A stretch of DNA of 64,000 bases, taken from the sequence record PZ445526.1; one strand, written 5' to 3'. Below the pieces are notes generated by a model, which worked only from the letters and a program-made list of their open reading frames with translations, did not search any database and had not been told where the DNA came from. A program made the position numbers and the translations under genes. Within the stretch, counting starts at the first letter, position 1, and every line of letters begins with the position of its first letter. Below are positions 25,321 to 32,432 of the stretch, in pieces. This DNA comes from a phage.

Positions 25321-26439
25321 ATGGAAAAATTTATGGCAGAGTTTGGACAAGGATATGTCCAAACGCCATTTTTATCGGAAAGCAATTCAGTAAGATACAA
25401 AATAAGTATAGCGGGTTCTTGCCCGCTTTCTACTGCAGGACCACCATATGTTAAATTTCAGGATAATCCTGTAGGAAGTCAAACATTTAGCGCAGGACTT
25501 CATTTAAGAGTTTTTGACCCTTCCACCGGAGCATTAGTTGATAGTAAGTCATATGCTTTTTCGACTTCAAATGATACTACATCAGCTGCCTTTGTTAGTT
25601 TCATGAATTCTATTTCAAGCAATAGACTTGTTGCTATATTAACTAACGGAAAGGTTAATTTTCCTCCTGAAGTAGCATCTTGGTTAAGAACCGCCGGAAC
25701 GTCTGCCTTTCCGTCTGATTCTGTATTGTCAAGATTCGACGTATCATATGCTGCTTTTTACACTTCTTCTAAAAGAGCTATTGCATTAGAGCATGTTAAA
25801 CTAAGTAATAGAAAAAGCACAGATGATTATCAAACTATTTTAGATGTTGTATTTGACAGTTTAGAAGACGTTGGAGCTACAGGATTTCCTAAAAGAACAT
25901 ATGAAAGCGTTGAGCAATTCATGTCGGCAGTTGGTGGAACTAATAACGAAATTGCGCGATTGCCAACTTCAGCTGCTATAAGTAAATTATCTGATTATAA
26001 TTTAATTCCTGGCGATGTTCTTTATCTTAAAGCCCAGTTATATGCTGATGCCGATTTACTTGCTCTTGGAACTACGAATATATCCATTCGATTTTATAAT
26101 GCATCAAATGGATATATTTCCTCGACACAAGCTGAGTTCACCGGACAAGCTGGGTCTTGGGAATTAAAGGAAGATTATGTAGTTGTTCCAGAAAATGCTG
26201 TGGGATTTACGATATACGCGCAAAGAACTGCACAAGCTGGTCAAGGTGGCATGAGGAATTTAAGCTTTTCGGAAGTGTCAAGAAATGGAAGTATTTCGAA
26301 ACCTGCTGAATTTGGTATCAACGGCATTCGTGTTAATTATATCTGCGAATCCGCTTCACCTCCGGATATAATTGTACTTCCTACGCAAGCATCGTCTAAA
26401 ACTGGTAAAGTGTTTGGACAAGAATTTAGAGAAGTATAA
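25321..26439 (+). CDS. 35: Long tail fibre hinge protein gp35, 372 aa
   Basis: 372 aa, AAGAGG SD; follows gene 34 as in T4. Confidence 0.9.
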   Translation: MEKFMAEFGQGYVQTPFLSESNSVRYKISIAGSCPLSTAGPPYVKFQDNPVGSQTFSAGLHLRVFDPSTGALVDSKSYAFSTSNDTTSAAFVSFMNSISSNRLVAILTNGKVNFPPEVASWLRTAGTSAFPSDSVLSRFDVSYAAFYTSSKRAIALEHVKLSNRKSTDDYQTILDVVFDSLEDVGATGFPKRTYESVEQFMSAVGGTNNEIARLPTSAAISKLSDYNLIPGDVLYLKAQLYADADLLALGTTNISIRFYNASNGYISSTQAEFTGQAGSWELKEDYVVVPENAVGFTIYAQRTAQAGQGGMRNLSFSEVSRNGSISKPAEFGINGIRVNYICESASPPDIIVLPTQASSKTGKVFGQEFREV

Positions 26440-26501: not shown

Positions 26502-27191
26502 ATGGCTGATTTAAAAGTAGGTTCAACAACTGGAGGCTCTGTCATTTGGCATCAAGGAAATTTTCCATTGAATCCAGCCGGTGACGATGTACTCTATAAA
26601 TCATTTAAAATATATTCAGAATATAACAAACCACAAGCTACTGACAACGATTTCGTTTCTAAAGCTAACGGTGGCACAAAGTCTCAGGGTTTCCAAAAAG
26701 AAGTAGAATTTAGAGAAGGCGTTAAGATTTCTGCAACGTTTTCTGGCGGTTCAGACCTGAACGGGTTATATTCTGGCAATGGAGATGGAGCTTCCAGAGA
26801 AAAAGCTAACATGGATTTACGTTCATGGTACGGCATTGGTATTTGGAACACATGTACGGGTGATGGGATCCAGGGACGCACAATCTGGTTTAATGCCAGG
26901 CGTGGTACAGTTGAAACAGTTGGCGATATTGTTTCAGACCGACAAGTTATTTCTAATGCTTCAGGACCGACCGGCCCAGCACACTTAACTCGTAAAGATT
27001 ATGTTGATGGAGCAATAAATACTGTTACAGCAAATGCGAACTCTAGAGTGTTGCGTTCTGGCGACACTATGACAGGTAACTTAACCGCGCCAAACTTTTT
27101 CTCGCAGAATCCCGCATCTCAACCCTCACATGTTCCACGATTTGACCAAATCGTAATTAAGGATTCTGTTCAAGATTTCGGCTATTATTAA
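26502..27191 (+). CDS. 36: Long tail fibre distal connector gp36, 229 aa
   Basis: Position between 35 and 37; SD aaagggg; size close to T4 gp36. Confidence 0.88.
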
Positions 27192-27199
27192 GAGGACTT

Positions 27200-30100
27200 A
27201 TGGCTACTTTAAAACAAATACAATTTAAAAGAAGCAAAATCGCAGGAACTCGTCCTGCTGCTTCAGTATTAGCCGAAGGTGAATTGGCTATAAACTTAAA
27301 AGATAGAACACTTTTTACTAAAGATGATTCAGGAAATATCATTGATTTAAGCATTTCCGCTGGCGGTAATATCAGTGGAAATGTAACTATTGATGGAACT
27401 TTACGCGTCAATGGACCAATAAACAATTTTGGAAATTTTTCCACAAGTGGCCAGATTACCGCTGGTAGTAGTATTTCAGCTCAAGTTTTTAGAGCATTGC
27501 AAGGTTCGTTTTATTCAAGAGCTTCAACCGGTGAAACAGCAAATGCCCATTTATGGTTTGAAAATGCCGATGGCACTGAACGTGGCGTTATATATGCTCG
27601 TCCTCAAACTACAACTGCCGGTGAAATACGCCTTAGGGTTAGACAAGGAACAGGAAGCACTACCAACAGTGAATTCTATTTCCGTTCTATAAACGGCGGT
27701 GAATTTCAAGCCAATCGTATTTTAGCATCAGATTCGTTAGTAACTAAACGCATTGCGGTTGATACTGTTATTCACGATGCCAAAGCGTTTGGACAATATG
27801 ATTCTCACTCTTTGGTTAACTATGTTTATCCTGGAACCGGTGAAACAAATGGTGTAAACTATCTTCGTAAAGTTCGCGCTAAAGCTGCCGGAACCATGTG
27901 GCATGAAATCTGTACAGCTCAGACTGGACAAGCTGATGAAATGTCATGGTGGACTGGTAATACTCCTCAGTCTAAACAATATGGTATTCGTAATGACGGA
28001 CGAATTGCTGGACGTAATAGCCTTGCATTAGGTACATTCACTACAAATTTCCCGTCTAGTGATTATGGTAATGTCGGTGTAATGGGCGATAAATATCTTG
28101 TTCTCGGTGACACTGTAACTGGCTTGTCATACAAAAAAACTGGTGTATTTGATCTAGTTGGCGGTGGATATTCTGTTGCATCTATTACTCCAGATAGTTT
28201 CCGTAGTACTCGTAAAGGTATATTTGGTCGTTCCGAGGACCAAGGCGCAACTTGGATAATGCCTGGTACAAATGCTGCTCTCTTGTCCGTTCAAACACAA
28301 GCTGATACTAACAATGCTGGAGACGGACAAACCCATATCGGGTACAATGCTGGCGGTAAAATGAACCACTATTTCCGTGGTACAGGACAGATGAATATCA
28401 ATACCCAACAAGGTATGGAAATTAACCCGGGTATTTTGAAATTGGTAACTGGCTCTAATAATGTACAGTTTTATGCTGACGGCAATATTTCTTCTATCCA
28501 ACCTGTTAAATTAGACAACGAATTATTTTTAAATAGTTCTAATAATACCGCAGGACTTAAATTTGGCGCCCCTAGCAAAGTTGATGGAACAAGAGCTATC
28601 CAATGGAACGGTGGTACTCGCGAAGGACAGAATAAAAACTATGTGATTATTAAAGCATGGGGTAACTCATTTAATGCCACTGGTGATAGATCTCGCGAAA
28701 CGGTTTTCCAAGTATCAGATAGTCAAGGATATTATTTTTATGCTCATCGTAAAGCTCCAACCGGCGACGAAACTATTGGACGTATTGAAGCTCAGTTTGC
28801 TGGAGAACTTAATGCTAAAAGTATTAATGCCGTCGAAAATTTTAAAGTTAATGGATTAAGCACTTTAGTCGGCGGAGTTACAATGAGCAATGGGCTTAAT
28901 TTAACCGGCGGTTCTTCTATTACTGGACAAGTTAAAATAGGCGGAACATATGATGCGTTAAGAATTTGGAACTCTCGTTATGGCGCCATTTTCCGTCGCT
29001 CAGAAACATCATTACATATTATCCCAACTAATGAAAATGAAGGGGAAAACGGTGCAATAAACAACCTTCGTCCGTTTAGTATTGAGTTAGGCACCGGCAC
29101 AGTTTCTATGTTACATGATGTTCATTTAGGAAATTCCGGATCTTCTACAGGATTATTACAAGTAAGTAATAGTCTTAAAACTATTAAAATGATATGTCCA
29201 GTGACTATTAATGAACGCAATGCAGCGCTTACCCTGGATTCTCCTTCATCTTCTTCTGCTAATTATTTACAGGGTTCTAAAGCTGGAACTAAATCGTGGT
29301 ATGTTGGTCTTGGTGGCGCTGGAAATGATTTATCGCTTTATAGCCAATCTTATGGACATGGTCTTGTTATAAGCGATAATTTCGTGTCAATTAGTAAACC
29401 TCTTAAAGTTGGAAATGCACAACTAGGAACTGACGGTAATATTACTGGTGGTTCTGGTAATTTTGCTAACTTGAATACCACGTTAAATCGTAAAGTTAAT
29501 TCTGGATTTATTACTTATGGAGCAACCTCTGGATGGTATAAGTTTGCAACAGTAACAATGCCACAATCCACTTCGACAGCCTTCTTTAAAATAGTTGGAG
29601 GTTCTGGATTTAATAGTGGATTATTCACCCAATGTAATATTGCTGAAATTGTTTTACGTACTGGTAATGAAAGACCTGCTGACTTAAATGCTGTATTATA
29701 CACAAGAACAATTGGAGCTGCATTTAAAAATATTGCAGTTAATAACGTCTCTGGAGATACATATGACATCTATGTTTATGCTGGAACATATTGTAATCAA
29801 TTAGCTTGTGAATGGGCATGTACTGAAAACGCTACTATTAGTGTTATTGGTATTAACTCATCTACACAATCACCTGTAGATGATCTTCCAGATACAGCAG
29901 TTAACGGTCAAGTTGCTAATGTTCTTAATAACTTGGTTGATAGCGGTAAAGGTAAGCGTTATGAAGCCGAGTCTGAAATAGCTATTAATAGCCAAACCGG
30001 TATTCGTATCAGAAGCAATGCCGATAAAACTGGTTCTGTAGCTACAATGTTACGAAATGATGGCGGTAGTTTTTATATTCTGTTTACAGATAAAAATGAC

Positions 30101-30931
30101 ACCGATGGCGCAGCAACTGTTAATGGTGAGTGGAATAGTAAACGTCCTTTCGCAATTAACTTAACAACCGGCGAAGTGATGATGAATAATGGCATAGCTG
30201 TTCGCAGCGCTGCTTTATTCTATAATAGCATAAACGTCAAAGATAATGGTTCTATTAACTTTGATAAATCAGGTGCTAACCCGAGAAATATGAGAATATT
30301 TCATGCTGGCGATGCTTCTCGCGGTAACCGTATTGAAATTGCCGATGAAACTAATTATATTGCTTACTTTGAAAAAGCTCCAGGTGGAGCTAACCGCTTT
30401 GTAGTAAATAATGCTACTGTATCTGGTGTTAATCAAATGAATTCATTTGGTGTCAATACATCAAATGCTCTCGGTGGAAACAGTATAACATTTGGTGATA
30501 CCGATACTGGTATTAAGCAAAATGGTGATGGATTATTAGACATATATGCGAACAACGCACAAGTATTCCGTTTCCAAAACGGCGATTTGTACTCATACAA
30601 AAATATAAATGCTCCAAACGTTTATATTCGTTCTGATATTCGTTTAAAATCCAACTTTAAGCCTATCGAAAATGCACTTGATAAAGTTGAAAAACTTAAC
30701 GGTGTCATTTATGATAAAGCTGAATACATCGGTGGAGAGGCAATTGAAACTGAAGCGGGTATTGTGGCTCAAACGCTACAAGACGTTTTACCAGAAGCCG
30801 TCCGTGAAACAGAAGACAGCAAGGGTAATAAAATACTCACTGTTTCTTCTCAAGCCCAGATTGCTCTTCTGGTTGAAGCTGTGAAAACGCTTTCTGCTCG
30901 TGTAAAAGAACTTGAATCTAAACTTATGTAA
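27200..30931 (+). CDS. 37: Long tail fibre distal subunit gp37 with C-terminal intramolecular chaperone-like domain, 1243 aa
   Basis: AAGAGGA SD; gene order; C-terminal SDIRLKSNF...[11 protein letters not shown] resembles self-cleaving fibre chaperone domains. Confidence 0.92.
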
Positions 30932-30932
30932 A

Positions 30933-30950
30933 AGAGGGCTTCGGCCCTCT
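30933..30950 (+). other. Stem-loop between genes 37 and 38
   Basis: agagggc-ttcg-gccctct hairpin immediately after the gp37 stop and before the gp38 SD. Confidence 0.5.
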
Positions 30951-30961
30951 AAGGATTTTTA

Positions 30962-31744
30962 ATGGCAATTGTAGGTGTTCCTGGCTGGATTGGTGAATCT
31001 GCCGTGAATGAAACTGGACAACGCTGGATGGATGCTGCGATGAGAGAAGTTCGTGTTTCAGTTCCCGGTTGGATGAGTTCAATGGCTGGGCAATCTAAAG
31101 AGATTCATTATAGCATTGGTGCTAGCAATTCTTACAATAAAGACACACTAATAAACTGGATAAAAGCCCAAGGAAGCACTCCTGTTGTTATTACTATTAC
31201 AGGAAATATTGTTTCTCAATCTACTGGTGTTCCATGCTTAGATTTTCCTAGCTCATTAACTAATGCATATGTTACGTTGATCATTAACTCAGGTGTGACT
31301 GTTTACGGACGCGGTGGCAATGGTGGTAGTAACGCTGCTGGTGCTGCTGGTGGTAACGCAATTAATAATGGCATCGGTACACGCTTGCGTATTACGAATA
31401 ATGGTGCAATCGCTGGAGGTGGCGGCGGCGGCGGCGGCGGTAACAGGGGTAAACTAATATTTGGTGGTGGCGGTGGTCGCCCATTCGGTGCTGGTGGGTC
31501 TTCCTCTCATATGAGTTCCGGTGCAACTGCTGGCACCATTTCCGCTCCGGGTAAAGGATCTGTTGGTGAGGGGTCTCTTAGCGCATATACAGGCGGCGCG
31601 GGCGGCAACGTTGGTGCTGCTGGAGGAAGATGTAATACTCAAGGTAACGGTACAGAATATAACGGCGGCGCAGCAGGTAAAGCTGTTACTGGTAATGCTC
31701 CAACTTGGACTAAAGTTGGTACAATATACGGTTCAAGAGTATAA
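30962..31744 (+). CDS. 38: Tail fibre adhesin gp38 (T2/T6 type, glycine-rich), 260 aa
   Basis: Conserved N-terminus then Gly-rich blocks including GGGGGGGGGN separated by variable segments. Confidence 0.88.
   Translation: MAIVGVPGWIGESAVNETGQRWMDAAMREVRVSVPGWMSSMAGQSKEIHYSIGASNSYNKDTLINWIKAQGSTPVVITITGNIVSQSTGVPCLDFPSSLTNAYVTLIINSGVTVYGRGGNGGSNAAGAAGGNAINNGIGTRLRITNNGAIAGGGGGGGGGNRGKLIFGGGGGRPFGAGGSSSHMSSGATAGTISAPGKGSVGEGSLSAYTGGAGGNVGAAGGRCNTQGNGTEYNGGAAGKAVTGNAPTWTKVGTIYGSRV
31415..31441 (+). repeat. GGN trinucleotide repeat, (GGC)6 flanked by GGT, encoding polyglycine in gp38
   Basis: ggaggtggcggcggcggcggcggcggt read directly. Confidence 0.85.
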
Positions 31745-31775: not shown

Positions 31776-32432
31776 ATGGCAGCACCTAGAATATCATTTT
31801 CGCCCTCTGATATTCTATTTGGTGTTCTAGATCGCTTGTTCAAAGATAACGCTACCGGGAAAGTTCTTGCTTCCCGGGTAGCTGTCGTAATTCTTTTATT
31901 TATGATGGCGATTGTTTGGTATAGGGGAGATAGTTTCTTTGAGTACTATAAGCAATCAAAGTATGAAACATACAGTGAAATTATTGAAAAGGAAAGAAAT
32001 GCACGCTTTGAATCTGTCGCCCTGGAACAACTCCAGATAGTTCATATATCATCTGAGGCAGACTTTAGTGCGGTGTATTCTTTCCGCCCTAAAAACTTAA
32101 ACTATTTTGTTGATATTATAGCATACGAAGGAAAATTACCTTCAACAATAAGTGAAAAATCACTTGGAGGATATCCTGTTGATAAAACTATGGATGAATA
32201 TACAGTTCATTTAAATGGACGTCATTATTATTCCAACTCAAAATTTGCTTTTTTACCAACTAAAAAGCCTACTCCCGAAATAAACTACATGTACAGTTGT
32301 CCATATTTCAATTTGGATAATATCTATGCTGGAACAATAACCATGTACTGGTATAGAAATGATCATATAAGTAATGACCGCCTTGAATCAATATGTTCTC
32401 AGGCGGCCAGAATATTAGGAAGGGCTAAATAA
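31776..32432 (+). CDS. t: Holin T, 218 aa
   Basis: 218 aa, single TM segment VAVVILLFMMAIVWY, recognised as T4 holin; strong SD. Confidence 0.9.
   Translation: MAAPRISFSPSDILFGVLDRLFKDNATGKVLASRVAVVILLFMMAIVWYRGDSFFEYYKQSKYETYSEIIEKERNARFESVALEQLQIVHISSEADFSAVYSFRPKNLNYFVDIIAYEGKLPSTISEKSLGGYPVDKTMDEYTVHLNGRHYYSNSKFAFLPTKKPTPEINYMYSCPYFNLDNIYAGTITMYWYRNDHISNDRLESICSQAARILGRAK

Follow-up and report, generated by a model that had tools for sequence, protein, structure and literature searches.

The window, a stretch of 64,000 nucleotides of phage DNA (PZ445526.1), carries on its + strand a long tail fiber locus of the T-even (Tequatrovirus) type. The genes and the intergenic element at this locus are as follows.

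25321-26439, + strand: gene 35 (gp35)
26502-27191, + strand: gene 36 (gp36), matching Pfam Phage_T4_gp36
27200..30931, + strand: gene 37, long tail fiber distal subunit precursor of 1243 aa, from the ORF list
30933..30950, + strand: intergenic stem-loop AGAGGGC-TTCG-GCCCTCT, between genes 37 and 38
30962..31744, + strand: gene 38, T2-type tail fiber adhesin of 260 aa, matching Pfam GP38 and Gp38_N
31776-32432, + strand: ORF of 218 aa in the slot held by the holin gene t in T2 and T4

The DNA of gene 37 is 99.9% identical to gene 37 of K3 (X04747.1) across the full 3765 bases of that record. The five single-base differences all fall within the 5' third, with none in the chaperone domain described below. 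The 24-kb stretches on either flank display about 96% identity to many Tequatrovirus genomes. On this basis, the window comes from K3 or from a phage very closely related to it. Comparison of the window gp37 with Pfam returns Gp34_trimer, gp37_trimer, and Peptidase_S74, the first two lying upstream of the Peptidase_S74 domain, which reaches the stop codon. The stem-loop, whose 7-bp stem is perfect and whose loop is TTCG, follows the stop codon of gene 37 and precedes the start codon of gene 38; it is annotated in the K3 record as a potential transcription terminator overlapping the potential ribosome-binding site of gene 38. In the hinge protein gp35, residues 59-128 match Pfam ILEI (PF15711, interleukin-like EMT inducer / FAM3-type) with an E-value of 1.5e-8 and 35.4 bits, for a cut-off of 27. 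Phage gp35 and FAM3-like proteins have been described as sharing a 'GG' domain.

Analysis of the 3' end of gene 37 delineates a C-terminal domain, together with the predicted elements of a cleavage site at its start.

27200..30631, + strand: predicted mature gp37, residues 1-1144, with the boundary inferred from the sites of S16 and the fPS phages
30629..30634, + strand: predicted scissile bond Arg1144-Ser1145 (codons cgt tct), from the alignment with the sites of relatives
30632..30634, + strand: codon of Ser1145, predicted catalytic nucleophile, from conservation and the alignment with 3gud
30632..30928, + strand: C-terminal intramolecular chaperone domain (Peptidase_S74), gp37 residues 1145-1243, 99 aa
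30647..30649, + strand: codon of Lys1150, predicted general base (Ser + 5), from conservation; equivalent to Lys1269 of T5 pb1

An earlier note on this DNA had translated the last 99 codons of gene 37 (30632-30928) and proposed that they resemble the C-terminal chaperone domains of phage fiber proteins, which cleave at a conserved Ser. The translation proves exact: it corresponds to residues 1145-1243 of the 1243-aa ORF, the stop codon at 30929-30931 follows directly after the domain, and the start coordinate 30632 coincides exactly with the codon of the conserved Ser, the first residue of the family motif. The proposed resemblance is borne out at the profile level. PF13884, Peptidase_S74 ('Chaperone of endosialidase'), matches the 99-aa piece with an E-value of 6.9e-17 and 61.9 bits, for a curated cut-off of 22, and residues 1-58 of the piece cover model positions 1-58 of 58, i.e., the full model. 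A phmmer search of the PDB retrieves gp37 of the Salmonella phage S16 (6f45) with an E-value of 2e-13, the domain-boundary sequence being aligned to DLNVS-SDRRIKKDIKAFEN, and the PDB profile search, with a profile made from the homologs, adds the MYRF autoprocessing domain 7dc3 (2e-11), the tail fiber 8jov (4e-11), and 3gud (1.5e-4). The latter, which belongs to gp12 of the Bacillus phage GA-1 (PMC9608196), is a released chaperone fragment whose chain sequence starts at the aligned SDERHK, and Ser1145 aligns with its first residue. A lack of profile similarity to chaperone domains, which the note had named as grounds against its own reading, is thus contradicted by both PF13884 and the PDB profile search. 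At the sequence level, gp37 residues 1145-1243 resemble chaperone domains to a degree well outside what chance would give.

The piece displays the features of a C-terminal intramolecular chaperone domain (CIMCD): PF13884 is above threshold, the domain forms the very end of a trimeric fiber protein, and the Ser/Lys dyad is present. Its predicted fold is also like that of solved chaperone domains, which have a helical core and a coiled-coil end. For the last 113 residues, an AlphaFold2 monomer model based on an 11-sequence alignment, with a pLDDT of only 67.8, shows a pair of short helices, a beta-hairpin, and, at the C-terminus, a long helix. A Foldseek comparison of this model with the PDB gave nothing significant, the best E-value being 0.12. 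The alignment available for structure prediction is shallow, since only about ten of the sequences retrieved as protein homologs contain the chaperone domain; most of the others are short fragments or tail proteins of prophages that have just an upstream motif in common with gp37.

The domain opens with SDIRLK, in which S1145 and K1150 correspond to the catalytic Ser of the family and the Lys five residues on. Ser1145 is present in 10 of the 11 database homologs, the exception being a fragment that begins after the Ser, and Lys1150 is invariant in the same alignment, which extends to environmental homologs with an identity of 39-44%. An alignment of nine diverse phage chaperone domains (the window, T2, T6, Yersinia phage fPS-2, a T5-like phage, and phages of Thermus, Streptomyces, Burkholderia, and Synechococcus) shows no exception at the Ser and a single one at the Lys, namely the 1998 record of T6. 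The two residues also align to Ser1264 and Lys1269 of T5 pb1 (positions according to PMC4690869). The conserved Ser put forward earlier is therefore found in these alignments, accompanied by the Lys at +5, within the SDIRLK at the domain start.

The T6 exception concerns AF052605.1 (1998), which reads SDSRLN, with Asn at the position of the catalytic Lys and an ambiguous base/residue in addition, whereas the T6 record MH550421.1 reads SDSRLK. The two records differ by about 1.2% over 423 nt. Because the modern T6 genome reads Lys and the two records diverge to this extent, the 1998 record is probably in error. The Lys-to-Asn change, confined to that record, was rejected as a sign of a dispensable dyad.

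The predicted position of the cut follows from an alignment with processed relatives. PMC7917993, in its summary of Dunne et al. (2018), describes the last 113 residues of S16 gp37 as autocleaved after trimerization, within DLNVS^SDRRIKK, between two serines. The S16 site has been aligned with that of the fPS phages, DVYIR^SDGRLKI (PMC7917993). The corresponding region of the window, NVYIR^SDIRLKS, aligns with both the DLNVS^SD of S16 and the DVYIR^SD of the fPS phages, which points to Arg1144-Ser1145 as the predicted scissile bond. T5 pb1 is cut before the motif Ser, between Thr1263 and Ser1264 (PMC4690869). For T5 pb1 and K1F, a mechanism has been described in which the Lys at +5 activates the Ser at the boundary, the X-Ser bond is cut, and an Arg of the neighboring chain senses correct trimer folding (PMC4690869); oxyanion-hole residues have likewise been proposed for K1F and T5.

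Removal of the C-terminus by a separate host or phage protease, the domain being a folding nucleus only, would fit the title of Drexler, Riede & Henning (1986), which, as listed in PMC3157838, mentions only 'proteolytic processing' of T2 gp37 and does not attribute it to autocatalysis. We nevertheless regard such an enzyme as very unlikely. Upon recombinant expression in E. coli, replacement of the aligned Ser by Ala blocks cleavage in homologs, namely T5 pb1 (S1264A) and K1F as cited there (PMC4690869), and S16 gp37 is described as autocleaved (PMC7917993), the same Ser and Lys being conserved here.

Over its last 118 residues, the window gp37 is 100% identical to T2 gp37 (AP018813); over the last 165, the identity is 96%. 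Outside this shared C-terminus, in contrast, the identity to T2 gp37 is only about 50-55%, and the T2 protein has 1341 aa compared to 1243 here (98 shorter). In both phages, the Peptidase_S74 domain is followed by a GP38-family adhesin and the gene order is 34-35-36-37-38-t. PF13884 is present in both T2 and T6 gp37. The piece predicted from the motif to be removed has 99 residues, whereas by the estimate of Drexler et al. about 120 residues are reportedly removed from T2 gp37. For T2 and T6, PMC3157838 states, citing Drexler et al. 1986, that the C-terminus of gp37 is proteolytically cleaved, followed by capping with gp38. This account of cleavage and capping is repeated by later papers, including PMC7289586. 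The earlier statement that a T2-type gp37 is processed and that gp38 then binds the tip is supported by PMC3157838 and PMC7917993, together with the identity of the last 118 residues to T2.

Homology alone is no proof of activity, and the domain is short, with 99 aa compared to 133 in T5 pb1 and 113 in S16. A genuine Peptidase_S74 homolog could on these grounds be retained in the virion, as a distal cap or as a platform for gp38 binding. The probability that we attach to a retained domain is very slight indeed. Contrary to such an arrangement, both residues of the Ser/Lys(+5) dyad are in place, and the sequence is identical to that of T2 gp37, the C-terminus of which is reported in PMC3157838 to be cleaved before gp38 capping. 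Moreover, in S16, gp38 docks on a surface exposed by removal of the domain, as stated in PMC7917993, and the uncleaved mutant fiber of T5 was non-functional in competition (PMC4690869).

The product of gene 38 provides the expected partner of a processed tip. It matches PF05268 (GP38) with an E-value of 3e-71 and PF21721 (Gp38_N) with an E-value of 4e-18. Its residues 1-28, MAIVGVPGWIGESAVNETGQRWMDAAMR, are identical to those of T2 gp38 and contain W9 and W22; tryptophans of gp38 insert in a prong-like manner into the gp37 tip, according to PMC7917993. The specificity region of gp38, in contrast, has diverged from T2. The window thus has the make-up of a T2-type long tail fiber, with a glycine-rich GP38 adhesin bearing an N-terminal attachment domain and a conserved pair of gp37 tip and gp38 N-terminus.

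In T4-type fibers, gp37 itself is the adhesin, its C-terminus bearing collar/needle domains for receptor binding, and gp38 is a released chaperone. Compared to Pfam, T4 gp37 matches Collar and Phage_fiber and lacks PF13884, and no Pfam family was matched by T4 gp38. The window genes show the opposite pattern: the Peptidase_S74 domain is present in gp37, and gp38 is not the 183-aa protein of the T4 type. This agrees with the claim of the earlier note that fiber assembly and receptor recognition differ here from the T4 mode, a difference that is already textbook knowledge.

Comparing the DNA with T2 in sliding windows of 60 nt reveals a block of near-identity that spans the junction of the two genes.

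~30440..31100, + strand: 'joint' cassette of ~660 nt common with T2

Within the cassette, the identity to T2 is 87-100% per 60-nt block and reaches 95% or more in 8 of the 11 blocks, while it drops to about 30-40% upstream and to about 28-73% downstream. The cassette takes in the final ~64 residues of mature gp37, followed by the chaperone domain, the stem-loop (itself within a shared stretch of 95-100% identity), and the gp38 attachment domain. Such near-identity between diverged flanks suggests that recombination boundaries lie to both sides of the gp37-gp38 joint. The pattern would also fit the lock-and-key subtypes of gp37 tip and gp38 N-terminus that have been described (PMC3157838), the tip and the N-terminus apparently being conserved as a pair.

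The last part of mature gp37 contains a further shared segment. Residues ~1090-1115 (about 30470-30545) carry a motif that recurs, at 57-75% identity, in hundreds of E. coli and Salmonella prophage genes annotated 'phage tail protein' (~335 aa), all of which lack the chaperone domain; this motif looks like a widely exchanged fiber module.

Of 50,697 phage records searched with the domain by tblastn, 1,747 contain it, 59 of them at 99% identity or more. The matches are nearly all located at the ends of annotated tail fiber genes and involve many host genera. From the number of phage records, the domain can be considered common. A chance or compositional match to, for example, a coiled-coil tail, with no real domain present, might be argued from the C-terminal ~25 residues, which form a generic amphipathic helix, and from the empty Foldseek result, but its probability is vanishingly small, being refuted by a PF13884 match (E = 7e-17) that covers the non-helical N-terminal 58 residues over the full model, by the tblastn distribution at tail fiber gene ends, and by the specific PDB profile matches.

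Two database entries deserve a separate mention. A 114-aa 'tail fiber domain-containing protein [Escherichia coli]', encoded on a contig of 168,860 nt, consists of the chaperone domain alone and is 100% identical to the window; as this contig, filed under E. coli, has the length of a T-even genome, it is apparently phage DNA submitted under a bacterial name, in which gene 37 was either split or called incorrectly. A 176-aa ENA protein from an 885-nt contig is 98% identical to 45% of a 104-aa domain query and yet has a precomputed match to PF01594 (AI-2E transporter); a chimera, in the metagenome contig or in the gene call, is the probable cause.

Taken together, gp37 residues 1145-1243 are very probably a Peptidase_S74 intramolecular chaperone that is self-released, after which gp38 caps the tip. 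Homology, the catalytic motif, the extreme C-terminal position, the identity to T2, and the matching gp38 gene are observed directly in the window. In the proposed sequence of events, trimerization of the domain would set three nascent gp37 chains in register, by analogy with K1F, T5, and S16, and the chaperone would then nucleate the folding of the triple-stranded, beta-structured distal fiber from its C-terminal end. Once the tip is folded, Ser1145, activated by Lys1150, would attack the Arg1144-Ser1145 bond in each chain, with the chemistry presumed from the relatives. The 99-residue chaperone trimer would be released and absent from the virion, as reported for T2 with its identical C-terminal sequence, and cutting off the domain would enable the gp38 adhesin to cap the fiber. 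By the precedent of S16, the exposed ...NVYIR tip may be where the N-terminal domain of gp38 docks, and gp38 would carry the receptor specificity. For the window phage, the autocleavage, the precise bond that is cut, and the order of the steps are all inferred from these relatives.

The 99-residue domain of the T2/K3 type might alternatively be a minimal chaperone. It would then lack the long 'tentacle' hairpins of K1F and T5 and would template only the last beta-strands, which form the gp38 docking platform. A related option is a second trimming step, which could apply if the true figure for T2 were roughly 120 rather than the product of a gel-sizing error. Jointly, these two options appear unlikely, and either of them, if true, would represent a modest variation on the known mechanism.

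With self-release of a Peptidase_S74 chaperone as the preferred reading, the feature is one already known, namely the intramolecular chaperone of T2/K3 gp37, well described for T2 and S16. Nothing here is new to biology; what is gained is a correct label for a feature that goes unannotated in many database records, many T-even genomes listing gene 37 as 'hypothetical' or as a plain 'tail fiber protein'. In practice, the mature gp37 of the window phage should be taken as its predicted residues 1-1144, and receptor specificity should be looked for in gp38, not in gp37. For fiber-swapping designs, the ~660-nt cassette of gp37 tip, chaperone, and gp38 N-terminus should be kept together.

Among the known systems, K3 has a chaperone domain and a stem-loop identical to those of the window; the 1987 record names the product just 'receptor recognizing protein' and leaves the domain unannotated. 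S16 gp37 has a domain of the same family, in the same position and with the same motif (VS^SDRRIKK compared to IR^SDIRLKS in the window). However, the S16 domain has 113 residues instead of 99, its scissile bond is preceded by Ser instead of Arg, and the preceding tip sequence is divergent, save for its last few residues. The chaperone domains of K1F endosialidase (3gw6), T5 pb1 (4uw8), and GA-1 gp12 (3gud) are longer (133 aa in T5) and embrace the preceding domain with long beta-hairpin 'tentacles'. In these three systems, the mature proteins bind the receptor themselves after cleavage, with no separate adhesin cap. The intramolecular chaperone autoprocessing (ICA) domain of MYRF (7dc3) lies internally in a eukaryotic membrane-bound transcription factor, and its cleavage frees the transcription factor instead of maturing a fiber.
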